A DNA stretch of 64,000 nucleotides from a virus. The DNA is taken from positions 62,278 to 126,277 of the IMG/VR virus record IMGVR_UViG_3300007735_000800. One strand, given 5' to 3'. Position 1 is the first letter of the stretch; every line of letters starts with the position of its first letter. Below, piece after piece: positions 52,945 to 64,000 of this stretch. The translations under genes were made by a program, and so were the position numbers. Below the pieces are notes generated by a model. That model ran no database searches and was not told the origin of the DNA. It worked only from the letters and a program-made list of their open reading frames with translations.

Positions 52945-53286
52945 CACCACCATTGGATTTGAAAAAGTATAGAAAAGAACTTTTATATAATCTTACATTT
53001 GGTTTGATGGATGAGAAGGAATAAGACAAGGGGTAAAGAGGGGTAGGAGAAAGTGTGGTAAGGGTAAAGGGTTTTGAAGAAAATTAACAAAATTTGAGAT
53101 TAGAGACCCCACCCCTCAAAGCCCCTCCAAAGCCCTTAAAATCCTTTTAGAGCCCTTCCAAACCGTCCAAGGTAGCCCGAGAGGTCTTTTTTAGAAGCTT
53201 TTTATAGGGCATCCTAGACAGTCAAGCAATTTTTATAAATTTTTAGACAATTTTTGATAAATTTTGAACAATTTTAAAACCCGTTT

Positions 53287-53438
53287 ATCCTGTCCAGGCC
53301 CCGTCCAGGCAATTCTCCATCCTGTCCGTACAAATCCTGTCCAAAGGGGGGTTTTGATCCTGTCCGAGCTCTCCGTAGCATTCCCAGAACCCCCGGATAG
53401 TAGTTTTTAATTTTTTCTGAAATTTTTGAATCCTGTCC
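53287..53438 (+). repeat. five direct copies of ATCCTGTCC
   Basis: Copies start at 53287, 53319, 53334, 53357, 53430. Confidence 0.85.
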
Positions 53439-53542
53439 GGTAAAAGTTTCAAATTTATCTGAAACTTCATAGAGTCCCATAAGTATAGCACAGACCAGTC
53501 CGATAACAACCAGTCCGGTAACTCTATTGAATAGCAACGCCC

Positions 53543-53649
53543 GATAACCCCCAGCCCCTCCCTCACAGTTATCAGACACAGGGGACTGGGGGGTTATCAG
53601 CCGCATGAACAGTCTGGTAACTATACACCATATATGGGGGTAGGTCAAG
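53543..53649 (-). ncRNA. promoter-driven GC-rich hairpin, candidate small RNA
   Basis: TTGACC-17-TATAGT promoter not followed by ATG; about 17-bp inverted repeat GATAACCCCCAGCCCCT at 53543-53598. Confidence 0.4.
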
Positions 53650-53806
53650 CAATGGAGCACAAGTCCGATAACTCAGCCCAGCCGGCTTCCTGGAGAAGAC
53701 CACGTTTCTCCAGAGTAAATTAATTATTATTTGTGGGGTTGTGTATATTGCGTCCCTGGATGGAGAGCTCGGAACAATCCGGGGTCCTTGCCGTCCATGC
53801 CGTCCA

Positions 53807-53871
53807 CTACTATCAGGAGGCGTCCAGTCCATGCAAAAAATCAGGGATCCTCTGAGGATCCCTGATAGTAG
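53807..53871. repeat. CTACTATC...hairpin-GATAGTAG cassette 1
   Basis: Inner TCAGGGATCCT/AGGATCCCTGA stem; T-run follows on the minus strand. Confidence 0.85.
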
Positions 53872-53928
53872 CTGCCGGCCCTGGATGGGCTCTCTCCTTC
53901 CCATCCAGGGCAATGCAGAACTTTTTAT

Positions 53929-56103
53929 TTACTTTGCGGGGGAAATGGCCTGCTGATACTCCGGGGGGAGTCCGGGCTTGATGGCCTGCCCCGCCACGAT
54001 ATCCACATACCGGGTGAGGAACACGCGGCTACCCGCCCTCTTGCCCATCGTCTTGACAAAGGTGTTCTTGATCTTGGTGAAGGTTCCGCTCTCCGCAATG
54101 GCATCCGCGTCCTTGACGATCTTGGGGGTGCGGATCAGGAAGAACGAGTCGTAGCCGGGAGCCATGTCCGGGTGGCAGATGATGGCACCGTCCTTGTACG
54201 CCTCGCGCATGGCGGTGAAGCGGGGCGAGATGCCCGTGTTGCGGAGGTGGTAGGGGAGGTTGAAGTACGCCTCCCGCTCCTTGGTGGACATGCAGAACGC
54301 GAGGTACTCCGTTTCGTGCAGCGTGTTGCTGCCCACGAACATCCCGACAAGCCTAGCGTTGATCGTCTTGCGGAGCGAGTCGAGCATGGAGCCGATGAGG
54401 ACATTGGCGAGGTTCGTGCCACGGTAGTCGTACAGGTTCATGCGGTGAGCCGTCCCGCAGACCTCGTTCATCACGGTCATCGTGCCATTCTCCGCGTGGT
54501 GGTAGTACGCCGTCTGCGACACCAAATCGTCACGGGTGTAGATGCCGTTGGGCTGACCATCGGTGACAACCATGAGGGTCGGAATCTGAATCTTCTTGTC
54601 GGCCACCCACTTGAGCATGAACTGGCTGACCGCAGCGATAGCCTCCACCGTGGGAGTGCCGTGCAGCGAGAGGCAGGCGGGAGCGTGAACGCGATCATTG
54701 TAGTTCGCGGCCTTCTCCTTGGCCTCGTCCACAAACGCACCGTACAGGTAGGCCATCATGCGCTCCCGATCAGCAGCCGAATCGGAGGACGAGAGGAGGT
54801 TGAACAGGCGCACCATGCCGTACTCAACGGAGGTGGGCTTGGGGTTGTTGATCTGCGTGAACAGGGGCGCGTAGTGGAAGTCGCCCTGACCACCCTTGCG
54901 CCTCCAGTCGTTGAAGGCATCATCGTACTTCTTGCCGTCAATGTAGGCGGGGCCGCAGTCGGTGAAGGCGAACACCTCAAACGGAATCTTGGCCTTCTCG
55001 CAGAACCAAACCAACTGGAACAACTGGAGGATGCAGTCGCTCAACCGGACGCTCATGCTGCCTGAGAAGTCGAGCATGAACACCATGCCGTGGTTCTTGC
55101 CGTCCTGCTTGACGATCTTGCTGATGAAGATATCGTCATGGGTGCGGTACTGGTGGAGGCGGTCGAGGTTCAGCATCCCGGTCTGCTTGGGACGCTCACG
55201 CCGAATCTCGTCCGCAGCCTTGCGGCGGTCGAACTGCGCGGCCAACTGGCGAACGAATGCATCGGAGTGGCGAACGAACTCGCGGTAGCCGTCCATGTTG
55301 ACGAAACCGTTGTTGCGCTCCTCAAACTGCTTGAGCAGATTGGACGAGGGGATGATGATGGTGGACAAGTCCTTCACCGGGGAGATGGTGACGCAGGAGG
55401 CGGTGAACTTCTCACCGTCCTTCTTGTCCCCTTGGCCGGGGGTGAACTCCTTGATGGCCTCGTCCATGAGGTTGCTGCCGTCCCGCCGTCCGCCCGCCTT
55501 CTGCTCCTCCTTCATCTGCTCGACCATGCTCTCCATAGAGGGGTGATCGTACAGACGCTTGGCGATATCGTAGACCTCCGCAAAGGTGGTCACGGCATCA
55601 ACCTCGTCCGCGATCTTCTGCTCCTCATCGGTGAGGTTGATCGGCAGGAAGCCCTGAACGCCCCACTTGAAGTGGAGGTTGATGCGGTTGACGAGGCTAG
55701 CCCGGTCAAAGTCCATCTTGGAGAAGCCGAACAGGTCGGTGTCCACGATCTCCTTGTAGCCAAGGAAGAAGTCGCGGCGAGTGCCGGGGAACTTCTCCTT
55801 CATCATCTTCTCGATGCGGACATCCTCGACCACATTGGCGATCCGCTGAAGGATGACCGGGTTGTAGCCCTCCGCCTCCGCAGCCTTGAGGATGGCATCA
55901 CTCTCCTCCGCAGGAGTCCACAGCGCGTGGCTGATCTCGTGCGCGATCAGCATGGTCTGCACGGTTTCCGAAACCTTCCACACCGGGAGGGTGAGGTGAC
56001 GCTGCTTGACATCGAAGGACGCGGTTTCCGCGTTGGGGTCGAAGGCGAAGGACAGGTTCTCGGTGGCGAGTGCGCGGGCGAAAATGGAGAGAGAGGTGTT
56101 CAT
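53929..56103 (-). CDS. VWA (MIDAS) domain protein with N-terminal HExxH motif
   Basis: AHEISH; LDFSGSM, GTPT, VVTDG MIDAS residues. Confidence 0.85.
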   Translation of the reverse strand: MNTSLSIFARALATENLSFAFDPNAETASFDVKQRHLTLPVWKVSETVQTMLIAHEISHALWTPAEESDAILKAAEAEGYNPVILQRIANVVEDVRIEKMMKEKFPGTRRDFFLGYKEIVDTDLFGFSKMDFDRASLVNRINLHFKWGVQGFLPINLTDEEQKIADEVDAVTTFAEVYDIAKRLYDHPSMESMVEQMKEEQKAGGRRDGSNLMDEAIKEFTPGQGDKKDGEKFTASCVTISPVKDLSTIIIPSSNLLKQFEERNNGFVNMDGYREFVRHSDAFVRQLAAQFDRRKAADEIRRERPKQTGMLNLDRLHQYRTHDDIFISKIVKQDGKNHGMVFMLDFSGSMSVRLSDCILQLFQLVWFCEKAKIPFEVFAFTDCGPAYIDGKKYDDAFNDWRRKGGQGDFHYAPLFTQINNPKPTSVEYGMVRLFNLLSSSDSAADRERMMAYLYGAFVDEAKEKAANYNDRVHAPACLSLHGTPTVEAIAAVSQFMLKWVADKKIQIPTLMVVTDGQPNGIYTRDDLVSQTAYYHHAENGTMTVMNEVCGTAHRMNLYDYRGTNLANVLIGSMLDSLRKTINARLVGMFVGSNTLHETEYLAFCMSTKEREAYFNLPYHLRNTGISPRFTAMREAYKDGAIICHPDMAPGYDSFFLIRTPKIVKDADAIAESGTFTKIKNTFVKTMGKRAGSRVFLTRYVDIVAGQAIKPGLPPEYQQAISPAK

Positions 56104-56199
56104 GCCTACAGTATAAGGGATGGTCGTGGGTGCGTCAAGCGAAACAGAAAGATTTTTTTGCGTCCGATAACTCGGCCAGCTGCAGGTACGGGTCTGGGA

Positions 56200-56273
56200 C
56201 TACTATCCGGCACCGTCCTAAGAAATAATAAAGTTCTGCGAGTCCTCGGCCCTGAAGGGGCCTCGGATAGTAG
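56200..56273. repeat. CTACTATC...GATAGTAG cassette 2
   Basis: ACTACTATCCG/CGGATAGTAGT; GTCCGATAAC at 56162. Confidence 0.85.
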
Positions 56274-56324
56274 TTCCCCCTCCCGCTGCCCCGGCCCCCA
56301 CAGGGGGCCGGGGCATGAACAGCA

Positions 56325-56567
56325 TCAGACGGTCACGGGGCTGATGAGCGAGGTCAGGTCGTAGACCCCCCTGCTCACCGCGCTCTTGTAGTCCTTCAGC
56401 ACCCAAGTCGGGATGCCCTTCATGTTGATGGACTGGGCAATGGTCAGGAGTTCCGTCTTGGTGAACTGGCTGTAGTCAGCCTGCCCCCCTCCGCTAGCCG
56501 CCTGTGCGGTATCTGCGAACTGCTTTGCGGCTTGGACGAAACGATTGCGCTTGTTGAGGTATGGCAT
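56325..56567 (-). CDS. stand-alone paralogue of the AAA ATPase N-terminal domain
   Basis: IPTWVLKDYKSAVSRGVY aligns with LPAWLVQDKSRRVGRGLY of the ATPase. Confidence 0.65.
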   Translation of the reverse strand: MPYLNKRNRFVQAAKQFADTAQAASGGGQADYSQFTKTELLTIAQSINMKGIPTWVLKDYKSAVSRGVYDLTSLISPVTV

Positions 56568-56588
56568 TTTCTTTTCTTTCTTTCTTGG

Positions 56589-57899
56589 TTAGGCGTTGAT
56601 CGCGTACTGCGTGTCCCCGCCCTTCAGGTGGGGATCGGTGATGTCGATGGCATCCTGCACCGGGGTTCCCGCCCAATCCTTCTTGACGGGATGATCCTTC
56701 ATCCCCTCCGGGGGAGGGAGGATGGTCGGGTCGATCTTGGTGTAGAGGTTGAAGAACGCATCCTGCGTGGCGGGGTCGAAGCGGGTCAGCGTCAACTTGA
56801 TCGCCTTCTGCTTGTCACCGAAGATGGCGAACGCCTTGCAGACCTCCTCCAAGCGGCGGGTGGTGATGATATCGTCCAAGCCGCCCTCCTTGAAGCCCAA
56901 GCGGATCGTTTCCGCCCACTTGACGAGGTACTGCGCGAACTCCTTGTCCTCGCGCCCATAAGCCTTCATCTTGCGGATGATGATGCGGGCCTCAACGGTG
57001 CGGTCAGCGTAGTCCTGCTCAAACCAGTAGGAGAAGCGGTCAAGGAACGCCTCGTTCATGCACCGGGTGCCAACGAAGCGGTCAGACTCGCCCTTGCCCT
57101 TGGTGTTGGCGGTGGCGACCACATTGAAGCCAACGGCGGGCTTGATGAACGCGCCGATCTTCTTGATGTAGATGCCCTTGCCCTCAAGGACGGGCTGCAA
57201 GCACATCATGCGCTCCGTCCCAAGGTCGATCTCGTCCAACAGGAGGATCGCGCCACGCTGCATGGCCTGAACGACCCCGCCGAACACGAACTTGGTTTCG
57301 CCGTTGATGAGGCGGAATCCACCGATGAGGTCATCCTCGTCAGTCTCGGCGGTGATGTTGACGCGGATGCACTCACGACCGGAGGCCGCGCAAATCTGCT
57401 CGACCATCGTGGTCTTGCCGTTGCCGCTCATGCCCGTGATGTAGACGGGGGCGAACTGCTTGGACTTGAGGATGGTGCTGATGTCATCGTGGTGACCCCA
57501 AGGAACGAAGGTGTCGTTCTTGACGGGGACGAGCGAAACATCGGAGGACGGGGCGGCGAGGTTGTAGTTGCTGCTGCTCATGGGTTCCATTGTAACCGAA
57601 GTTTCGGAGTCGGTCAACTCATCTGAAGAAAGATTCTCATTTTCCTCACCGATTGCATCGGTGACGACGACCATCTCCGGGATGCTGTACAGGCCACGGC
57701 CAACGCGCCGGGACTTGTCTTGGACGAGCCAAGCCGGGAGGGTGCTGTAGTTGTCGTTGGGCGACATCTTGTAGGTGAGGTGGAATGCGTTGATGCACTG
57801 CTCACGGGTGTACCGTGCCTCACCGATGGACGAGGGAGTGCCGTACAGGTCGGTGAGAGCCTTGAGGAACTTTGCCTTGCGGTTGTCGATGCTGTTCAT
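56589..57899 (-). CDS. MoxR/CbbQ/CobS-like AAA+ ATPase
   Basis: GMSGNGKT Walker A, DLIGG, LLLDEID Walker B, NEAFLDRF; start MNSIDN 6 nt after TACAAT. Confidence 0.9.
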   Translation of the reverse strand: MNSIDNRKAKFLKALTDLYGTPSSIGEARYTREQCINAFHLTYKMSPNDNYSTLPAWLVQDKSRRVGRGLYSIPEMVVVTDAIGEENENLSSDELTDSETSVTMEPMSSSNYNLAAPSSDVSLVPVKNDTFVPWGHHDDISTILKSKQFAPVYITGMSGNGKTTMVEQICAASGRECIRVNITAETDEDDLIGGFRLINGETKFVFGGVVQAMQRGAILLLDEIDLGTERMMCLQPVLEGKGIYIKKIGAFIKPAVGFNVVATANTKGKGESDRFVGTRCMNEAFLDRFSYWFEQDYADRTVEARIIIRKMKAYGREDKEFAQYLVKWAETIRLGFKEGGLDDIITTRRLEEVCKAFAIFGDKQKAIKLTLTRFDPATQDAFFNLYTKIDPTILPPPEGMKDHPVKKDWAGTPVQDAIDITDPHLKGGDTQYAINA

Positions 57900-57991
57900 A
57901 CGAACATTGTAAGGCACAATCTTCTTGCCGTCAAGCAATCTTCAAAGTTTTTTTTGAGTCCGATAACCTGCCGGCTCCGCCTGGTCCTGGA

Positions 57992-58062
57992 CTACTATCC
58001 GGAAAGAAATAATAATCCTCACAATCCTCAGAAACCGGCATAAGGCCGGTTTCTGATAGTAG
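57992..58062. repeat. CTACTATC...GATAGTAG cassette 3
   Basis: Inner TCAGAAACCGGC/GCCGGTTTCTGA stem; GTCCGATAAC at 57958. Confidence 0.85.
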
Positions 58063-58121
58063 CTCAACGAACAACCCGGCCCTTGCGGGCCGGGTTGAGT
58101 ATGAGAGGGAACCCTAGCGGA

Positions 58122-58364
58122 TTAGGCTCCCGTGTTGTAGAAGTTCTTGTCGCACTTCTCCTGCGGCTTGCAGCAACGCTCAAGGCTGTTGATGCGAGCG
58201 TAAATCTTCTCATGCTCGCGCCAGTAGTCAGTCTCCAACTCGTTGATGCGGTGGTTCACGGCTGCGCTGCGCTCACGGAGCAGGGCGCGGGTGTAGCCGA
58301 TGGCGCAGAAGAGTGCGAGGCCGGTGAGGGACAGGTACATCAGGGTCGTGGGTTCGATGGTCAT
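58122..58364 (-). CDS. small membrane-anchored protein
   Basis: TTGACA-17-TATAAT-6-ATG (MTIEPTT); N-terminal TM. Confidence 0.6.
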   Translation of the reverse strand: MTIEPTTLMYLSLTGLALFCAIGYTRALLRERSAAVNHRINELETDYWREHEKIYARINSLERCCKPQEKCDKNFYNTGA

Positions 58365-58415
58365 GGTTCTATTATACCTCTTGGGTTGGGGTTTGTCAAG
58401 CAAAAAGTCGGGAAG

Positions 58416-58491
58416 TGGAAGGGGCGGGAGTTGCACCCACATATTCACGCTTATAAGGCATGCGCTCTAACTACTTTTCAGCCACCCTTCC
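58416..58491 (-). tRNA. tRNA-Ile(TAT)
   Basis: GGAAGGG/CCCTTCC+A, CATGC-CTTATAA-GCGTG, GTGGG-TGCAACT-CCCGC. Confidence 0.8.
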
Positions 58492-58630
58492 GTGGGAAGC
58501 CTTTTTACAGATGCTCCGTGTCTGTGCAACCGCAGGTTGCCTCTGTGCGGTTTGTCGAACACCGCCAAACTCAAAATATATTATTCGTCATGTTGATGTA
58601 CATCGTACCTCCTGGTTTGTGTTTGTCAAG

Positions 58631-58704
58631 CGTTCCCGGCTGGATTCGAACCAGCGACCTGCCGCTTAGAAGGCGGCTGCTCTATCCAACTGGGCTACGG
58701 GAAC
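58631..58704 (-). tRNA. tRNA-Arg(TCT)
   Basis: GTTCCCG/CGGGAAC, GCCGC-CTTCTAA-GCGGC. Confidence 0.93.
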
Positions 58705-58711
58705 AGGTCGA

Positions 58712-58831
58712 TTCGGCAGCAGGACTCCCATACCTGCATCTCTAGGATCGTACTTTCGGGTCGGATATAGCCAACATCGGGGCTTTACCACACCTAGCCG
58801 TGGAAGGTTTGCACACGGCGGGGAATCCTAG
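58712..58831 (-). ncRNA. structured inter-tRNA element
   Basis: CTAGGAT/ATCCTAG closing helix with GCCGTG/CACGGC and GTTGG/CCGAC hairpins, then GCAGG/CCTGC. Confidence 0.35.
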
Positions 58832-58901
58832 CGACTTCTCTATACAGCCCATGCCTCATCTCAACTTGGACGGGCTTAAAGAAGCACCGCCTCTCTTTTA
58901 G

Positions 58902-58986
58902 TGGGATTGGTGGGACTTGAACCCACAAGACTTTAGAGGTCGGCAGATTTTGAGTCTGCTGCGTATGCCGATTCCGCCACAATCCC
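58902..58986 (-). tRNA. tRNA-Leu(CAA)
   Basis: GGGATTG/CAATCCC, GCAGA-CTCAAAA-TCTGC, long variable arm. Confidence 0.93.
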
Positions 58987-59001
58987 TTTGGTCGTATTGT
59001 A

Positions 59002-59382
59002 TCAGATCGTTGAGTCTTTGTCAAGTGTGTTGTGTAATATTCTATGGCAATTTGCACAGACCAAAACACACTTGCTGATTTCCTCGTTGAGCGTTTCTAG
59101 ACTGTGTGAGTCTTTAGACAACCAAGAAACGTTTTTATGTTTTGCTTGTGGATCTAGGTGATGAAAGTCCAAACCACATGGATGTTCATTCCAACCACAT
59201 CGGAAACATTTACCAGATTTTTTAATTTCTTGGATGTACTCCCTGTTGCGCTCTCGTAGTTTTTGGTTGTTCTCTCTAAACCGTTCTTTGTTACTCTGGT
59301 AGTATTCTTGAACAGCTTGTTTGTTTTTTTCACGCCAACGACGTGAGGCTTCTTTTCTTGCTTCTGGATCTTTTCTAGGCAT
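59002..59382 (-). CDS. free-standing HNH endonuclease
   Basis: CFRCG...LDFHHLDP...EISKCVLVCANCHRILH; inserted among tRNAs. Confidence 0.85.
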   Translation of the reverse strand: MPRKDPEARKEASRRWREKNKQAVQEYYQSNKERFRENNQKLRERNREYIQEIKKSGKCFRCGWNEHPCGLDFHHLDPQAKHKNVSWLSKDSHSLETLNEEISKCVLVCANCHRILHNTLDKDSTI

Positions 59383-59415
59383 GGATTCTAAATCTCCTAA
59401 AAGTATTTAGAATCC
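59383..59415 (-). promoter_or_regulatory. hairpin containing a late promoter and SD of the HNH gene
   Basis: GGATTCTAAAT/ATTTAGAATCC 11-bp inverted repeat; TAAATA in the 5' arm, AGGAG in the loop. Confidence 0.7.
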
Positions 59416-59424
59416 TAGCAATGT

Positions 59425-59721
59425 CTAGAACAGGTCGGGGGTGTTGTCAACCTTTTTCTTGAAATTTTCTAGACCAAACTTGGCATGCAGTTCCTCGTAG
59501 AAGTCGGAGTTCGGGCGAACCACCGATTCGTGAAGACGGTTGCCGTTGATGAAAAAGGTCGCCTCGTCCACGGCATCGTAGTAGGCATCGATCAGTTCCT
59601 TGGGTGGATTGGCATTGCCTTCCAACCAATGCTCCATGATCAGGTCTGCCACGATTACAACGCGGTCGTAGGCTTGGAGGGCGAGAACCTTGGATTCTTC
59701 CGGCGTTGGGGGGTTGATCAT
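59425..59721 (-). CDS. hypothetical protein
   Basis: Intact ORF directly after tRNA-Lys. Confidence 0.55.
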   Translation of the reverse strand: MINPPTPEESKVLALQAYDRVVIVADLIMEHWLEGNANPPKELIDAYYDAVDEATFFINGNRLHESVVRPNSDFYEELHAKFGLENFKKKVDNTPDLF

Positions 59722-59724
59722 AAA

Positions 59725-59797
59725 TGCCTCCGGTGGGGTTCGAACCCACGACCAATAGATTAAAAGTCTACTGCGCTACCAACTGCGCTACAGAGGC
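59725..59797 (-). tRNA. tRNA-Lys(TTT)
   Basis: GCCTCTG/CGGAGGC, GTAGA-CTTTTAA-TCTAT. Confidence 0.92.
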
Positions 59798-59830
59798 GAA
59801 TGCCCATTGTACCCGATGGGCGCGGGTTTG

Positions 59831-60178
59831 TCAAACCTGATCCATGTCCTCGTCCTCGCTCCACATGCGCTTCTCCTCCGCGCTCCCGTACTTGTCACGG
59901 GTCATGGTGAGGAGGTCAACGAGGAGCATGATGAAGCCCATCGTCATCTGGTCGAGGGGACACTCCTCGCCGTTCTCCTTCATCCGCATGAGCGTCATGC
60001 CCATGTCGGCAGTCGCGCCGGAAACGATGAGGCGCAACTTGTCGTCCTTGTACCATGTCTTGTTCTCGCAGGTCAGCGCGAGGAGCATGGCTGCGATCAT
60101 GGACGGGGGCGGCTTGAAACTCTGCGCCACCTTGGACGGGTCGTTGAAGAAGTTGCTGAACTTGTTGGGTGCGCTCAC
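59831..60178 (-). CDS. hypothetical protein
   Basis: GC3-rich codon pattern; coupled ORF. Confidence 0.6.
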   Translation of the reverse strand: MSAPNKFSNFFNDPSKVAQSFKPPPSMIAAMLLALTCENKTWYKDDKLRLIVSGATADMGMTLMRMKENGEECPLDQMTMGFIMLLVDLLTMTRDKYGSAEEKRMWSEDEDMDQV

Positions 60179-60417
60179 TTGTTGATCTCCTGAATCTTGG
60201 CGAAGATGTCCACCACGAACTCACACTCGTCCTCGCTGCACATGGACGGGTCGCTCATGTTGGTGAGGATGCCGTAGGCAATCGCCATCTTTGCAACGCT
60301 GTCCACATCCTCGTGCCACAGCGGGTTCTCCTGCACGAAGGCGAACATCTCGTTCAGCAGGTCGCTGAAGTCACAGGTGGTGGGCTTGTCGGGGAAGTGT
60401 CGGGGTGGCTTTCGCAT
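60175..60417 (-). CDS. hypothetical protein
   Basis: TTGACA-16-TATAAT promoter and GGAGG upstream. Confidence 0.6.
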   Translation of the reverse strand: MRKPPRHFPDKPTTCDFSDLLNEMFAFVQENPLWHEDVDSVAKMAIAYGILTNMSDPSMCSEDECEFVVDIFAKIQEINK

Positions 60418-60734
60418 GGTGCCTCCATTATAAGGGAAGGTTCAACCTTGTCAAGCAGGACGGTGTAGTTTTTCTTGCTTTTCGACAGGTAGTTCTTGAT
60501 CGCGTAGAAGTCCTTCATGTCGTCCGAAGGAATCTCCACGCGCAGGATGTAGGTCTCGTAATCCGGCATCTCTGCGAACATGGTGGTCTTGTTCAGCGGG
60601 GAGAAGTCATCCTTGCCGATGAAGACCGTGATGTAGCCAAACATGATGTCGTTCATCATCTTGGCGAACCTGCGCTTCACCCAAGCATGGGAGAAGGATC
60701 GCTTGTGTTGGAGCGTGACCGTGAAGGTGATCAA
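60354..60734 (-). CDS. hypothetical protein
   Basis: Coupled to the upstream stop; 3' end overlaps the next gene. Confidence 0.5.
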   Translation of the reverse strand: MITFTVTLQHKRSFSHAWVKRRFAKMMNDIMFGYITVFIGKDDFSPLNKTTMFAEMPDYETYILRVEIPSDDMKDFYAIKNYLSKSKKNYTVLLDKVEPSLIMEAPCESHPDTSPTSPPPVTSATC

Positions 60735-60958
60735 TCGAAGTCCTCCTCGTCAACGAACTCATCGGCATCGAACTCATCCATGTCGGGAACATCCCGGTCA
60801 AGGTCAACCTCGCTGCCCGCGTACTCCTCCGGGTCGTAGTCGCCCACCATGCGGGTGGCCTCGTCACGGCTGTAGCCCTCGTTCATCAGTTCAACGATGG
60901 CATCGTTGGTGTCGTAGAGATCGGACTCGTCATACGGAATGTGGTCGGGGTTGGTCAT
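60731..60958 (-). CDS. small very acidic protein
   Basis: TTGACG-17-TATCAT-6-ATG (MTNPDH); D/E-rich, possible DNA mimic. Confidence 0.6.
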   Translation of the reverse strand: MTNPDHIPYDESDLYDTNDAIVELMNEGYSRDEATRMVGDYDPEEYAGSEVDLDRDVPDMDEFDADEFVDEEDFD

Positions 60959-61041
60959 GCCCCCATGATAAGGCATGAAAGGTGTCCCGTCAAGCAAACC
61001 GGGGAATATTTTTTATTATCGGTCCAAGGGGTCCGGGCCGG

Positions 61042-61096
61042 CTACTATCAGGAGGCGTCCAATAAAATCAGCGGCCTTAGGGGCCGCTGATAGTAG
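61042..61096. repeat. CTACTATC...GATAGTAG cassette 4
   Basis: Inner ATCAGCGGCC/GGCCGCTGAT stem; TTATCGG at 61016. Confidence 0.85.
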
Positions 61097-61225
61097 CCAA
61101 AGGACATGGCCCGCCCTAAAGAGGACGGGCCAGAGGTCTTGAAGGAAGCACCGTACTCCCTGTGCCCAAAGAAACTTGCAAATCTCTCCGGGTTCGCGCT
61201 GCGCGAGGCGCCTGGTGTTATTTGT

Positions 61226-61600
61226 TCAGATCACGGGTGCGCCGAACTTCTCCGTGTGCATCTCCATGAGGCGCATGACCGCATCGTCCAAGTCCACCGC
61301 CTTCTCCTCGCCCTTGGCGCGCATCTTGGCGATCATGTGGTTGTAGTAGGAGATGTTGCCCTCGGAGAGTTCGTTGATGAACTTGCGGGGATCGCCGTAG
61401 AGTTGCGTGATGAGAGCGACCACGATATCGCGCTCCATGCGGCTGAACCATGCCGGGGGCAGGCTGACGGCGAGTTCGCAGAAGGCGAGGGCCGCGTTGG
61501 TCTCCTCCGCGTCCTTCTTCGTGTCGTTGACCATGGCGAGGCAGAGGGCGAGGTTGAGGGCGAGAGCGTCGATTGCGGGGGTTCGGGTGGGCTTGTCCAT
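61226..61600 (-). CDS. hypothetical protein
   Basis: TTGACA-17-TACAAT-6-ATG. Confidence 0.65.
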   Translation of the reverse strand: MDKPTRTPAIDALALNLALCLAMVNDTKKDAEETNAALAFCELAVSLPPAWFSRMERDIVVALITQLYGDPRKFINELSEGNISYYNHMIAKMRAKGEEKAVDLDDAVMRLMEMHTEKFGAPVI

Positions 61601-61636
61601 GGTGCTATTGTACCTGTTGGTGGTGCGAATGTCAAG

Positions 61637-61924
61637 TCACGCGGTGACGATTTCTGTTTCTTTGCTGAAGTCCATCACACCAACGATGGAATCCTCGTGG
61701 AAGCGAATCCAGTCGCCTTTCTTGGTGTCGAACGCGGTGATGTAGTGCGGGTTCTCACCGCGCACAAACTTGGGATGCTTGTCCTTCGGAATCACGATCA
61801 GGTTCCGCGTGATCTTGCGGTCGTGGGTCGTGGTTCCATCCACCTTCTTGAAGGTGACGCGGATGATCTCTCCGTTGGAGAGAGCGGTGCGAATGATACG
61901 GGCGATTTCTTGAGTCGGGTTCAT
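61637..61924 (-). CDS. SH3-like / WYL-like domain protein
   Basis: VTFKKVDGT...T...IP...N..I..FD..K..W..F pattern; start MNPTQE. Confidence 0.6.
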   Translation of the reverse strand: MNPTQEIARIIRTALSNGEIIRVTFKKVDGTTTHDRKITRNLIVIPKDKHPKFVRGENPHYITAFDTKKGDWIRFHEDSIVGVMDFSKETEIVTA

Positions 61925-61995
61925 TTTCTTTTTCTTTCTTGGAGGGGTCGGGTGGGGGGCGGGGCAACAAGCCTCCACCCCCCTAGCACCACCCT

Positions 61996-62232
61996 TTAGG
62001 CGGGGTTGTTGCGGCGGGCATCCTGCCACCGGGTGACGGCCACCTCCACCGCGCGGACATAGCGGATGAGCCGCTCGGCCTCCTCGCGCACACACTTGTC
62101 GGAGCGACCGTTGCGGAGCGCGTTTTCGAGGCCCAAGGTGAAGCCGTTGACCAGTCCGTAGGCGAAGGCCATGCCGAAGTCGTTGGTGGGCGGGATTTCG
62201 ATTTCCGGGAGTTGGGTGGTGCTGTTCGTCAT
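61996..62232 (-). CDS. hypothetical protein
   Basis: TAGACA-17-TACAAT-6-ATG. Confidence 0.6.
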   Translation of the reverse strand: MTNSTTQLPEIEIPPTNDFGMAFAYGLVNGFTLGLENALRNGRSDKCVREEAERLIRYVRAVEVAVTRWQDARRNNPA

Positions 62233-62337
62233 GTCCCTATTGTAACCTCTGTTTCGGATTCTGTCTACCGTCTTGGAAACTTTTTTTTGAAAAAAGGGGA
62301 GGGGGAGATTTCTCTCAACCCCTCCCCCATCCGGGGG

Positions 62338-62721
62338 TCAGGCCGCTTCCTGGTCGCTGAGGTTCTTGAGGATGTTGCGGGCCTCCTGCTCCACCGCATC
62401 GAAGAACAACTTCGGGCAGGCGATGGAGAGGGGAACGATGTCGAAGGTGTCCGCGCACTCCCCGGCCATGATCGCGTCACCGTAGATGTGACGGCCCGCG
62501 ATGCATGAGGCGCGCAGGTTGAGGGGCGCGTCCCGGAGGAGGCCCATCTCATCGACCCACATGGCAGCGTGGTAGTTCTTGTCGAGGGACACGCGCTCCA
62601 CGATCTCGCAGCCGATGATCGGGTACATGGACGAGAGTTCGCGGGTGATCTCCACGACCGTGATCGGCTGCGTCATGGAGGCGGGGATGTGGACGGCGGG
62701 GATGTTGGAGGCGGTGCTCAT
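62338..62721 (-). CDS. DUF3846-like protein
   Basis: LSSMYPIIGCEIVERV...MWVDEMG...PLNLRAS...IYGDAI; TAGACA-17-TACAAT-6-ATG. Confidence 0.65.
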   Translation of the reverse strand: MSTASNIPAVHIPASMTQPITVVEITRELSSMYPIIGCEIVERVSLDKNYHAAMWVDEMGLLRDAPLNLRASCIAGRHIYGDAIMAGECADTFDIVPLSIACPKLFFDAVEQEARNILKNLSDQEAA

Positions 62722-62815
62722 GCACCTATTGTAACCGATGGCGGGCATTCTGTCTAGCGATTTGGAAAGATTATTTCGGGGGCCGATAACGCGTCCTGCG
62801 CCGGCGCGTCCTGGG

Positions 62816-62881
62816 CTACTATCAGGGGGCGTCCGGTAACGGGGGAGCTCCGGGCCGGCCAAGGGCCGGCCCGGATAGTAG
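62816..62881. repeat. CTACTATC...GATAGTAG cassette 5
   Basis: Inner TCCGGGCCGGCC/GGCCGGCCCGGA stem; CCGATAAC at 62783. Confidence 0.85.
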
Positions 62882-62884
62882 TCC

Positions 62885-63025
62885 CTAGCCCTCCCGGGCC
62901 AGTTCCCGCTTTCCGTCCCTCCTCAAAGCCCGAGGATCGCGGGTCTTCTTGCCCCAGGTCTTGGGGCGAAGCCTTATCCCTTGGCGGAAGGCATCGTGTA
63001 CAAAGCGTCCGGGTCGGTTGTTCAT
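62885..63025 (-). CDS. small basic protein
   Basis: MNNRPGRF... start overlaps the upstream TAA. Confidence 0.4.
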   Translation of the reverse strand: MNNRPGRFVHDAFRQGIRLRPKTWGKKTRDPRALRRDGKRELAREG

Positions 63026-63273
63026 TACTTGGCCTCCAGTTCGATTTGCTTTCTGGCGAAATCCAGTTTGTTCTGGATTCCCTTGATCGCGTTCGCATCC
63101 ATCCGACACTCCATCAGCGCATCATCGTCCTGCGTGTCGGTAATGTCGAACGACTTTGAATCCTTGAGGAGTCTAACCAACGCGTCGAACATTGCCGCAT
63201 CGATTAGGGCCAGTTCACGGGCGGAGAACTCGACCCGCGTGGTACGCTTGCGAATGGGGGCGATTGTGGTCAT
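63025..63273 (-). CDS. hypothetical protein
   Basis: Start MTTIAP overlaps the upstream stop. Confidence 0.55.
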   Translation of the reverse strand: MTTIAPIRKRTTRVEFSARELALIDAAMFDALVRLLKDSKSFDITDTQDDDALMECRMDANAIKGIQNKLDFARKQIELEAK

Positions 63274-63842
63274 TAGTCGGCCTTCCCCCGGACGATGATC
63301 CACAGCAGAGCCTGCAGCGTGGCCGGGGCCATGCACACGGTCGGCGTGGCCGCGATGCTGCGGATAGCGTCCGCGATGGCCCGGTACTCGGTGGCCGTGG
63401 GCGCATCCTTACCAAGGTCAGCAGCGCGGCACATCCACACATCGACCACGACCGCGCCCGAATCCCCGGCGATGGCACGGGCGAATGCGTTCGTCTTCGG
63501 CCCCTTCAAGCCCTTGAAGCCTTCCGTGCAGCACCGATCCGCAGCGGCCACATGGGAGCGCAGACCCTTGGGCGTGATGCCCTGCGCGTACTGGAGTGCC
63601 TTGGCCTTATTGTGCGCCCAAGTCACGCGGGGCGAGAACGCGGAGACAACGCTGGCCGCGACTTCCATGCTCCACTCCGGGCGCAGGATGGTCAGCGACT
63701 CTGCGAACGCGTTGGCCTCGGTGTACCATGCGCGGGCCGCGTGGTAATCGGCAACGGTGGCGCGGGACAGGAGCGCGATGAACGACTCGGTGGCGCGGGT
63801 GCGAACGGTTTCGTAGCGGGCGGTGGTGGTGGTGCGCGACAT
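63273..63842 (-). CDS. HhH-GPD/glycosylase-like fold protein (tentative)
   Basis: WY..A...SAFSPRVTW..N...GPKTNAFARAIAGD..AVVVDVWMCRA; TTGACA-17-TATCAT-6-ATG. Confidence 0.5.
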   Translation of the reverse strand: MSRTTTTARYETVRTRATESFIALLSRATVADYHAARAWYTEANAFAESLTILRPEWSMEVAASVVSAFSPRVTWAHNKAKALQYAQGITPKGLRSHVAAADRCCTEGFKGLKGPKTNAFARAIAGDSGAVVVDVWMCRAADLGKDAPTATEYRAIADAIRSIAATPTVCMAPATLQALLWIIVRGKAD

Positions 63843-63935
63843 GCCCCTATGATATCATGGGCGCGGGAATCTGTCAACCGATGCGCGAAGAAATATTTGA
63901 GATTATATTATCGGGCGCACCATCCAGGCCGGCGA

Positions 63936-64000
63936 CTACTATCCGGCGAGCGAAGCGAGCCGGTGGACGGACTCAGGCCGGCGCTGCGCGCCGGCCTGAT
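63936..64000. repeat. CTACTATC cassette 6 (cut by window end)
   Basis: Inner TCAGGCCGGCGC/GCGCCGGCCTGA stem; window ends in ...CCTGAT; TTATCGG at 63908. Confidence 0.75.

Follow-up and report, generated by a model that had tools for sequence, protein, structure and literature searches.

Box-hairpin-box cassettes as candidate boundary elements of the early-gene island in a clade of uncultured T4-like phages

The early genes of a T4-like phage are separated by six box-hairpin-box cassettes, in which an 8-bp box and its inverted copy flank a palindromic hairpin. The box is strictly invariant over about 90 cassettes from related phages despite turnover of the hairpin core. They are best read as elements, specific to a clade of uncultured freshwater T4-like phages, that mark boundaries within the early-gene island. 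We tentatively regard them as akin to the promoter-early stem-loops (PeSLs) of other T4-type phages, whose boxes would be bound by a factor specific to the lineage, probably a DNA-binding protein; this interpretation, drawn from sequence comparison, is given a probability of roughly 0.4.

Cassettes and promoters of the early-gene island

In the window, i.e. the whole 64-kb stretch of phage DNA that was analysed, the box CTACTATC occurs 12 times on the two strands, against 0.74 +/- 0.82 in shuffled sequences, none of which reached 12 in 100 shuffles. There are five complete inverted box pairs and one half copy (63936) truncated by the end of the window, which is also the end of the contig. The box-hairpin-box observation of an earlier, sequence-only reading, which described six copies partitioning the early region, is thus confirmed. 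The two ends of the contig overlap (final 163 nt, initial 165 nt) with 152 identical positions, all mismatches falling inside one 12-nt promoter spacer, and past the half copy the sequence at the contig start goes on ...CCTGATAGTAG. The AGTAG that had been predicted to follow base 64000 can be read across the self-closure of the contig, which sets the number of cassettes per genome at six, not seven. Only three boxes lie outside cassettes in the whole 126-kb contig, where about four single occurrences are expected by chance, and all six cassettes are confined to an early-gene island of 58% GC inside a genome of 35% GC. The principal features are as follows:

53396-53403, minus strand: single box CTACTATC(CG), about 230 nt inside a conserved small membrane-protein ORF
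53620-53648, minus strand: promoter TTGACC-17-TATAGT, downstream of cassette 1; heads a conserved control region and the small membrane-protein ORF
53807-53871, minus strand: cassette 1, after the CobT-like gene; box 1, 12-bp hairpin with T6 run, GGAC spacer, box 2
53879-53910, minus strand: hairpin A of cassette 1, upstream of the cassette; 11-bp stem, conserved AAGGAGAGAG loop
56110-56138, minus strand: promoter TTGACG-17-TATACT of the CobT-like gene (predicted leaderless), preceded by an A-tract; GTTATCGGAC at 56162-56170
56200-56273, minus strand: cassette 2, between an 80-aa gene and the CobT-like gene; tandem G.A mismatch in the inner stem
57906-57934, minus strand: promoter TTGACG-17-TACAAT of the CobS-like gene (predicted leaderless); GTTATCGGAC at 57958-57966
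57992-58062, minus strand: cassette 3, upstream of the CobS-like gene; 12-bp hairpin, spacer GGATTG...ATTATTATT
60965-60993, minus strand: promoter TTGACG-17-TATCAT, downstream of cassette 4; CCGATAA at 61016-61022
61042-61096, minus strand: cassette 4, upstream of the MTNPD... gene; 10-bp hairpin, then TTTTATTGGAC
61107-61132, minus strand: hairpin A of cassette 4, terminator-like
62728-62756, minus strand: promoter TAGACA-17-TACAAT, downstream of cassette 5; TTATCGG at 62783-62789
62816-62881, minus strand: cassette 5, downstream of the DUF7178 unit; GC-rich 12-bp hairpin without U-tract
63849-63877, minus strand: promoter TTGACA-17-TATCAT of the DUF7178 gene, downstream of cassette 6
63936-64000, minus strand: cassette 6, upstream of the DUF7178 gene; cut by the window and contig end, full copy at contig bases 101-170

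Every cassette follows the end of an operon and precedes a promoter of the sigma70 type. Along the minus (sense) strand the boundary runs from the gene stop through a GC-rich hairpin (hairpin A), box 1 (CTACTATC) and a perfect 12-bp hairpin, after which there is often a U/AT run plus TTATTGGAC, to box 2 (GATAGTAG), GGAC repeats, GTTATCGGAC, an A-tract, the -35/-10 elements, 6 nt and the ATG. A second GC-rich hairpin of type A stands ahead of nearly every cassette, and in 56 of 65 distinct cassettes from the clade the 50 nt upstream of the cassette reach a folding energy of -12 kcal/mol or lower. The promoters are near-consensus -35/-10 pairs with 17-nt spacing, 30-60 nt past box 2. As had been described, a motif (CCGATAA/TTATCGG) lies 20-40 nt from the cassette and is followed by an A-tract, which almost all copies have between TTATCGGAC and the -35 box, and by a strong minus-strand promoter; there are 20 promoter-like sites where 4.6 would be expected, and 17 of the 20 lie on the minus strand. 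The cassettes accordingly split the minus-strand early-gene block into promoter-led units, in line with the promoter-gene modules of the sequence-only reading. Since the ATG lies only 6 nt beyond the -10 box, there is no room for a Shine-Dalgarno site, and the mRNAs started at these promoters should be leaderless.

The inner stems are perfectly paired over 10-12 bp, with the exception of cassette 2, whose 10 pairs are broken by a tandem G.A mismatch that is kept in relatives (L019, L021, L037 and L040 share this type) and which lacks a U-tract directly after the hairpin. The proposal that the 3' arm has two possible partners also holds: ATC(A/C)G of the left box is shared between box 1 and the 12-bp hairpin. 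An outer repeat invariant over 8-11 bp had been claimed; the part without any variation is 8 bp, and the extension to 10-11 bp (11 bp of outer complementarity in cassette 1) is common but variable. Only cassettes 1 and 4, the two that had been read as minus-strand terminators, score as canonical terminators among the six.

As observations on the phage itself, which is an uncultured freshwater T4-like virus, its early island shows leaderless mRNAs by prediction, GC3 near 0.9 and tRNAs for A/U-ending codons, and the rest of the phage is AT-rich.

Conservation and variants among related phages

Related cassettes occur in about 27 IMG/VR contigs carrying some 90 further copies, and the same architecture was found at 34 IMG/VR loci. 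The outer repeat, whose conservation in relatives had been proposed as a check, is present in every relative with a CobS at least 71% identical. The architecture is absent from 185,579 prokaryote species genomes, which yielded only nine chance-like single matches, indicating that it is not a host repeat. Among the 65 distinct cassettes the boxes are invariant, the stem is 12 bp in 38 and the loops are 3-4 nt; the perfect 12-bp inner palindrome is fully replaced among relatives while both boxes stay fixed, and the loops are flipped in five of six same-stem pairs. The 74 expanded cassettes all have canonical boxes, and all eight minimal cassettes carry exactly one position-2 variant.

Variants of boxes and cassette layout change in concert within genomes. 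The base before box 2 is uniform per genome (all T or all G), and the T-type and G-type genomes may each have arisen from a single change; position 9 of box 1 is not uniform. All four cassettes of one relative (L065) are minimal, with a canonical box 1 and a variant box 2, and are placed after a separate hairpin-plus-T-run terminator, the U-run following hairpin A. Another contig (L052), the sole example of a direct-repeat form, lacks the hairpin and has just direct repeats of GATAGTAG at three sites; a hairpin is found in all cassettes except those of one genome. In a third (L053) a 27-nt insert is common to three of four cassettes, the fourth having just its last 4 nt. The single in-gene box is kept in 8 of 10 relatives regardless of reading frame, is tandemly doubled in two relatives with 11-12 nt spacing, and agrees at position 9 with the box-2 type of its genome in all five clear cases. 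Purines flank the boxes on one side and pyrimidines on the other, with no covariation, and the box-box spacing (46-84 bp) showed no helical phasing. A U-tract after the hairpin is clear in 31 of the 65 cassettes, weak in 12 and missing in 22. With only about half of them having a U-tract, and given L065, L052 and the single in-gene box, the cassettes are not just terminators; the role beyond termination suggested by the sequence-only reading agrees with boxes that persist without a U-tract, without a hairpin and as single copies.

An RNA device of the type of lambda sib/tI offers one alternative. RNA stopping at the inner hairpin would keep a short protective hairpin, and read-through RNA would pair box 2 with box 1 and be marked for RNase III-type processing or decay, so that operon messages are separated. 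As in lambda, an upstream sequence can pair with one past the U-tract to form a long stem in read-through RNA only: the 5' half of box 1 precedes the hairpin and is complementary to a sequence beyond the U-tract, and the minimum-energy fold of the read-through RNA includes the box 1:box 2 stem in 53 of the 65 cassettes, at an average gain of 3.8 kcal/mol (-3.8 kcal/mol in folding energy). All expanded cassettes have one and the same orientation with respect to transcription, and the conserved tandem G.A mismatch of cassette 2 is stable on the sense strand only. Unlike the lambda element, there are many copies here, their sequence is invariant, and the 22 without a U-tract have no 'terminated' state. 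The boxes do not covary. An apparent pairing covariation at position 9 disappeared once genome of origin was controlled (80 observed against 80.7 expected in within-genome shuffles); no base-pair covariation was left after this control, and none extends outward. The covariation test thus does not support selection for pairing, and unpaired variants are fixed in L065, with a systematic U.U mismatch in the stem, and in L052, whose direct repeats are unable to pair. A lone box 1 is conserved without a partner, and no phage RNase III gene was found. We consider this explanation unlikely.

The cassettes might alternatively be plain PeSL-type punctuation, the hairpins being terminators and the boxes a conserved stem base kept identical by gene conversion among copies, with no specific binding partner. 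Conserved stem bases are indeed seen in the PeSLs of other T4-like phages (GN-loop-CN, A3-4G3-loop-C3T3-4), cassette features are homogenised within genomes, and canonical terminators do occur (cassettes 1 and 4). However, gene conversion works within a genome; it cannot account for an 8-mer that stays the same in about 27 phages, with CobS identities of 71-88%, next to a stem that is free to change. The boxes of L052 without a hairpin, those of L065 outside the terminator and the single box conserved inside a coding region also speak against this view, which appears improbable.

Exchange at the cassettes and comparison with known elements

The flanks of one cassette form a three-way mosaic, with flank identities of 0.97/0.65, 0.57/0.88 and 0.57/0.62, and discordant flanks were found in 8 of 20 informative pairs at cassettes vs 11 of 75 at control offsets. 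These flank mosaics put crossovers inside the cassettes. In L018 homology begins exactly at box 1. High-identity matches end at cassettes 13 times against 8.9 +/- 2.8 expected, an enrichment that is not significant. The six syntenic cassette positions are identical in about 20 relatives, among which whole-module reordering at cassettes was not found, and the closest pair (G000 vs L014, 94% identity) differs by indels at repeated promoters and an HNH gene rather than at cassettes. Of the proposed shuffling, then, the mosaics with their internal crossovers stand and the rearrangement of modules does not.

The sequence-only reading also pointed to hairpins of the attC/REP type. In this view the cassettes are site-specific recombination sites, at which a dedicated enzyme would recognise the folded hairpin with its sequence-specific base, cut and join, move promoter-gene modules and replace cores. 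The layout is like that of attC sites and REP/BIME elements in its conserved inverted outer motifs around a variable paired centre of variable length between co-oriented genes, and, in common with REP elements, the box has GTAG/CTAC at its end. The single mismatched base of every minimal cassette could act as a strand mark; the loop flips, the mosaic junctions at boxes (including L018) and the homogenisation of cassette types within genomes also fit. Nevertheless, no Y1 HUH, tyrosine or serine recombinase gene was found in the self-closing contig, with no match to PF00589 (IntI-type tyrosine recombinase) in its 126 kb or to PF01797 (Y1 HUH transposase, RAYT) in the genome. The attC core sites RYYYAAC/GTTRRRY (R''/R') do not occur in the boxes, integron cassettes are promoterless whereas every module here is headed by its own promoter, and the many bacterial-chromosome copies expected of REP/BIME elements are missing from the species genomes searched. 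The constant slots, the indels of the closest pair and the insignificant match ends count against it too, and T4-type phages recombine efficiently on short homology with no special enzyme (PMC2839356). The recombinase-driven reading is not supported and appears quite improbable.

The PeSL analogy of the sequence-only reading proved to be the right one, and its interpretation as a whole is partly supported. PeSLs are known in RB49/phi1, T4/PST and KVP40/nt-1 (Arbiol et al. 2010, PMC2839356; Comeau et al. 2014, PMC4122927), and their authors speculated, without evidence, that a specific protein might bind the conserved stem motif. Like PeSLs, the cassettes lie between small early genes of a T4-like phage and unite a stem-loop with a strong early promoter of the sigma70 type, whose -35 box is preceded by an AT-rich tract; they also cluster in a plastic region and have a conserved stem base. 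Shared too are copy-copy crossovers giving mosaic relatives, promoter-bounded single-gene indels and an association with indels or replacements between close relatives (here the flank mosaic and discordant flanks). They differ in having an invariant 8-bp box twice, inverted, at a hairpin base with two alternative partners; an extra upstream hairpin; additional GGAC and TTATCGGAC motifs; an ATG 6 nt past the -10 box in place of a Shine-Dalgarno site and start codon at the 3' end; only six copies per genome, in conserved syntenic slots; boxes that outlive hairpin or terminator in some relatives; and a location in a GC-rich island of an AT-rich genome. To our knowledge, PeSLs are the only mechanism described for targeted gene shuffling in T4-type phages.

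The stoperators of mycobacteriophages L5 and Bxb1 are 13-bp asymmetric repressor sites in short intergenic regions, where one protein reads duplex DNA and affects passing transcription. The boxes resemble them as short, asymmetric, invariant sites scattered intergenically in one phage lineage. Stoperators, however, occur singly, keep a single direction with respect to transcription and have no link to a palindrome, whereas the boxes are paired and inverted around one.

A candidate boundary element with a putative dedicated factor

In the preferred reading of the cassettes as PeSL-like boundary elements, the hairpin or hairpins would end or stabilise the upstream early transcript, and a trans-acting factor peculiar to the lineage would recognise the 8-bp box. 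It would most likely be a protein reading the box as duplex DNA, either as an ordinary duplex or at the base of an extruded or folded hairpin, and might insulate or regulate early units, e.g. by roadblock termination, early shut-off or activation. As the sole identical stretches between otherwise diverged intergenic regions, the boxes would also be favoured places for crossovers by the homologous recombination of the phage itself, which would exchange hairpin cores and flanking gene modules as at PeSLs. Against this reading, a pure duplex site leaves unaccounted for both the perfect core palindrome of all but one genome and the canonical box 1 with variant box 2 of L065. The box spacing is unphased, pairing of box 1 with box 2 is indeed favoured when read-through RNA is folded, and no candidate box-binding protein was found among the island proteins, which match only DUF7178, WYL_2, DUF3846 and CobS/CobT-like families.

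There is a slim chance that box and perfect palindrome together are the substrate of an undescribed phage-encoded factor reading both sequence and structure, which would mark early-operon boundaries and actively drive targeted core replacement and promoter-gene module exchange. If true, the region expressed first in T4-like phages, possibly a terminal repeat, would harbour a cassette system resembling integrons but lacking any known recombinase family.

With its 8-bp box invariant across about 27 diverged phages, this clade provides a much sharper case than the stem motif of PeSLs. The invariance of the box, its separability from terminator and hairpin and its concerted change within genomes make the question of a dedicated factor directly testable with a defined oligonucleotide. 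The finding also records the punctuation of an early region adapted to a GC-rich host inside an AT-rich phage.

Boxes, cassettes and the GC-rich early island

The window has 12 copies of the 8-mer CTACTATC, referred to here as the box, counting both strands, where 0.74 would be expected, and ten of these copies form five inverted pairs, 55–74 bp long, each enclosing an inner hairpin. A further copy starts a sixth cassette that is cut by the window end. The family of cassettes described in the sequence-only reading is thus borne out. Outside the cassettes, the 126,277-bp virus contig has three single boxes, close to the number expected by chance.

Box-bearing features of the window (cassettes by start position; minus is the sense strand)
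53396, minus: single box (box count)
53807, minus: cassette 1, complete inverted pair (box-pair count)
56200, minus: cassette 2, complete inverted pair (box-pair count)
57992, minus: cassette 3, complete inverted pair (box-pair count)
61042, minus: cassette 4, complete inverted pair (box-pair count)
62816, minus: cassette 5, complete inverted pair (box-pair count)
63936, minus: cassette 6, started by one box copy and cut by the window end (box count and contig overlap)

The last 163 nt of the contig (window 63838–64000) overlap its first 165 nt (contig bases 1–165) with 152 identical positions, and all mismatches are confined to one 12-nt block, the DUF7178 promoter's spacer. The related contig L014 (94% identical) has the "start" allele of this spacer ahead of the same gene. 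These two observations indicate that the contig closes on itself and that the genome holds six cassettes. The continuation foreseen for the sixth copy is present in the overlap at the contig start, as ...CTGATAGTAG. IMG/VR labels the contig as linear and 70% complete, yet it closes on itself. The 12-nt difference between its ends also means that two alleles of the promoter spacer coexist in the sampled population.

The phage, which is uncultured, is a T4-like myovirus with a family-B DNA polymerase 43% identical to that of cyanophages, and it has genes for a DnaB-type helicase, a ribonucleotide reductase and tail fibres. No match to the region came from a megablast search of 50,697 phage records, and no cultured relative was found, the best identities being 43% for the DNA polymerase and about 45–56% for CobS. 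The genome backbone has about 35% GC and a GC3 near 0.2, and the cassettes are confined to a block of about 12.9 kb (window 53600–64000 plus contig bases 1–1700) with 58% GC and gene GC3 values of 0.85–0.92. More than ten IMG/VR contigs assembled independently share this compositional split, which makes it a property of the lineage rather than a chimera or misassembly. On its minus strand this island encodes the DUF7178 protein, two WYL_2 proteins, a DUF3846 protein, several small unknown proteins, four tRNAs, an AT-rich HNH endonuclease gene, a CobS-like AAA+ ATPase and a CobT-like protein.

Selected genes of the island
58415–58491, minus: tRNA-Ile (UAU), Rfam
58630–58704, minus: tRNA-Arg (UCU), Rfam
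58901–58986, minus: tRNA-Leu (CAA), Rfam
59002–59382, minus: HNH endonuclease gene, GC3 0.35, AT-rich codons inside the GC-rich island
59725–59797, minus: tRNA-Lys (UUU), Rfam
63273–63842, minus: DUF7178 gene, encoding the most conserved island protein

A promoter scan of the island stretch found 20 promoter-like sites where 4.6 would be expected, and the minus strand has 17 of the 20. Rfam detected only the four tRNAs in the region, and nothing at the cassettes. All four tRNAs read A/U-ending codons, which are those used by the AT-rich backbone. At least two of them are preceded by a near-consensus promoter ending 9–10 nt before the mature 5' end, so that the primary transcript should have almost no leader for RNase P. 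The DUF7178 protein is modelled (pLDDT 89.5) with an HhH-GPD DNA-glycosylase fold; its best structural match is the 8-oxoguanine glycosylase Tm1821 (Z 12.2, 166 residues aligned), and almost all of the next 20 matches belong to the same superfamily. Phages of Mycobacterium, Rhodococcus and Gordonia encode sequence homologues of it, a hint that the host is actinobacterial. The absence of the HNH gene from L014 makes a recent insertion of a homing endonuclease probable. Two genes at the island's left border (contig bases 907–1626, outside the window) diverge from the remaining genes and show the same leaderless promoter geometry on the opposite strand.

On the sense strand of a cassette, the stop codon is followed by a GC-rich hairpin (hairpin A), box 1 (CTACTATC) and a perfect inner hairpin whose 5' arm starts within box 1, at ATC(A/C)G. 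Then come a spacer, often TTTTATTGGACGCC or ...ATTATTATT..., and box 2, usually in the form C(T/G)GATAGTAG. Beyond box 2 lie GGAC repeats, GTTATCGGAC(GC), an A-tract and the −35/−10 boxes, and only 6 nt separate the −10 box from the ATG, which predicts leaderless messages. The last letters of the inner hairpin's 3' arm, C(T/G)GAT, are also those with which box 2 opens. The ATC(A/C)G of box 1 consequently has two possible partners, the inner 3' arm and box 2, in agreement with the alternative pairing noticed earlier. In cassette 1, hairpin A is the one that follows the CobT-like gene (53879–53910, minus); its AAGGAGAGAG loop, which is Shine-Dalgarno-like and placed in the 3' UTR, is kept in relatives while its stem covaries (CCCTGGATGGG versus GGACTGG...).

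Distribution of the cassettes and pairing of the boxes

An exact pattern search of IMG/VR recovered the cassette in 34 loci, two of them chance matches, and a search with the CobS-like protein contributed further loci. Boxes are present in every contig with a CobS at least 71% identical and in none with a CobS at most 53% identical, some of which have TTATCGGAC-like motifs. Words resembling TTATCGGAC or GTCCGATAA stand upstream of CobS in four more distant T4-like contigs with CobS identities of 43–49% (L069, L071, L075 and L086), from which CTACTATC boxes are absent, which makes the operator-like motif older and more widespread than the boxes. A scan of prokaryote genomes, bacterial and archaeal, from 185,579 species found the architecture in none of them; its nine palindromes were chance matches.

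Across 65 distinct cassettes neither box varies. A 12-bp inner stem occurs in 38 of these, loops are 3–4 nt, and mismatches or wobble pairs are rare. With the added loci, "expanded" cassettes (n=74) all have canonical boxes, and "minimal" cassettes, which consist of box-stem-loop-stem-box with no spacer (n=8), each differ from the canonical form by a single change, which affects position 2 in one of the two boxes.

Folding of the full cassette RNA joins box 1 and box 2 in 53 of the 65 cassettes, with a mean gain of 3.8 kcal/mol, and this pairing follows the same logic as the lambda sib/tI site. Covariation tests gave no sign of selection for it. Position 9 of box 1 does match the base before box 2 in 52/65 cassettes versus 37.6 in a global shuffle, but this is an artefact of genome-level box types, as a within-genome shuffle gives 80 observed versus 80.7 expected. 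The base before box 2 is uniform in each genome (all T or all G) and position 9 of box 1 is not; a purine precedes box 1 and a pyrimidine follows box 2, and these flanks do not covary. A sib-like RNA device, which the fold favours, is therefore unlikely, given that the pairing covariation vanishes within genomes.

Separable parts and the nature of the boxes

Of the 65 cassettes, 31 have a clear U-tract behind the inner hairpin, 12 have a weak one and 22 lack it altogether. A terminator scan of the window accepts just copies 1 and 4, exactly the two that had been read as terminators. In the relative L065 all four cassettes are minimal and without a U-tract, and they lie directly after a separate hairpin and T-run that form an obvious terminator; box 1 is canonical and box 2 is GATAGTTG in 4/4. 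In L052 the inverted pair and the hairpin are lost, and three boundaries instead carry 2–3 direct repeats of GATAGTAG, 12–28 nt apart, the whole 137-kb record showing no other arrangement. A scan of viral contigs for such direct repeats returned at least 118 loci, and all matches listed were chance ones without promoter context. In L053 a 27-nt insert before box 2 is common to three of four cassettes; in the fourth, just the final 4 nt of it are present.

The single box at 53396 (minus) lies about 230 nt into a conserved small membrane-protein ORF and is present in 8 of 10 relatives. It stands in another reading frame, doubled, in L053 and is doubled as CAACTATCAG in the related locus L056; being kept across frames and doublings, it is conserved as nucleic acid rather than as codons. 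The cassettes without U-tracts, the separable parts in L065, L052 and L053, and this conserved single box together support the suggestion that the box has a role past termination. The surrounding control region at the island end (52945–53660, minus) is conserved and comprises a promoter, the ORF of about 110 aa (MRLITPQ...) and about 300 nt of AT-rich non-coding DNA; the ORF's DNA is dense in regulatory words, with about four copies of TTATCGGAC, five of GGACAGGAT and one CTACTATC box, which may be either binding sites or by-products of the coding sequence.

PeSLs (promoter-early stem-loops) are composite stem-loop/promoter elements between T4-type early genes that terminate and promote transcription, recombine mutually and form mini-circles (PMC2839356, PMC4122927). 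That the cassettes are plain PeSL punctuation fits the terminators scored at copies 1 and 4; set beside a box role past termination, we regard it as unlikely, slightly more so than the sib-like device.

The boxes occur inverted, direct or single, stay invariant amid change and shift in concert within a genome, so that they look like putative sites of a co-evolving trans-acting factor. The single box matches its genome's box-2 type in the five unambiguous genomes. Duplex DNA is the only form that makes box 1 and box 2 one object. However, the core stays a perfect palindrome almost everywhere, the two boxes of L065 differ systematically, and box spacing ranges over 46–84 bp without helical phasing, all of which run counter to a simple duplex site.

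Several specific identities for the box were rejected. For an IHF site only the WATCAR half matches, with no TTR after it. Against a Chi-like site, an AT-rich 8-mer would hardly be expected to be common in a GC-rich host, and boxes also lie away from the island edges. As a three-frame translation stop, TGA-TAG-TAG falls in one frame only. For a MotA-like box of an antisense promoter, a −10-like AATAAA lies 11–13 nt from box 2 in some expanded copies and in no minimal one. The DUF7178 protein is a poor candidate for the box binder, its modelled HhH-GPD glycosylase fold belonging to a family that is not sequence-specific.

Recombination and relation to known elements

In gene-order maps of about 20 relatives the cassettes occupy six constant slots: one on either side of the DUF7178 unit, one ahead of the MTNPD gene (named by its protein start), one ahead of CobS and one on either side of CobT. 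Genes turn over within modules, and the expected shuffling of genes by module reordering is contradicted by these constant slots. This phage (G000) and L014 show three differences, none at a cassette: a one-gene promoter module between repeated promoters, the HNH gene and an 880-bp insert. The module (contig bases 543–890, outside the window) comprises a promoter and a 115-aa WYL_2 protein; its deletion in L014 lies between two copies of the leaderless promoter, a textbook PeSL-type indel.

Despite their fixed slots, the cassettes are crossover points, as a comparison of relatives shows. At the slot before the MTNPD-like gene, the upstream flank (U), hairpin core (K), spacer (S) and downstream flank (D) are combined in three ways, namely U1-K1-S1-D1 in L042, U1-K2-S1-D2 in L016 and L027, and U2-K2-S1'-D1 in L011, with flank identities of 0.97/0.65, 0.57/0.88 and 0.57/0.62. 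Homology of L018 to L036 and L011 begins at the first base of box 1 and extends only onward from it. One flank is alike and the other unrelated in 8/20 informative cassette pairs versus 11/75 control offsets, the pairs being non-independent and the island mosaic elsewhere too. An end-of-match breakpoint test at the cassettes was not significant and is confounded by conserved gene segments. Where cassettes have the same stem and different loops, the loops are exact reverse complements in 5/6 cases. Such reversal is a DNA-level flip of the palindrome, and flipping also explains the perfectly Watson-Crick stems.

The contig contains no gene for an HUH, tyrosine or serine recombinase, and none for RNase III. 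Dedicated site-specific recombination would account for crossovers at the cassettes, and with no such recombinase gene it is the least probable of the alternatives weighed here. T4 homologous recombination requires short homology only (PMC2839356), and the phage's own homologous recombination can account for the crossovers in full.

The cassettes share architecture, setting and mosaicism with PeSLs, as had been proposed, the one defining feature missing being the Shine-Dalgarno site; what they have beyond PeSLs is an inverted 8-bp box that never varies, a second hairpin and additional motifs upstream. The defining features of attC and REP elements were looked for and are absent from the cassettes, which, with no recombinase gene of these classes, speaks against the attC/REP-type reading. 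We therefore file the cassettes as a PeSL-type element in a new form, and not as attC or REP. Of the original interpretation, the PeSL-like boundary with a function past termination stands, and the attC/REP-type recombinase sites do not. Beyond the alternatives discussed, the remaining probability belongs to something not yet thought of. The reading that we tentatively prefer, at a probability of about 0.4, is that the cassettes are PeSL-like boundaries whose boxes are putative sites of a lineage-specific factor, with recombination as a consequence.
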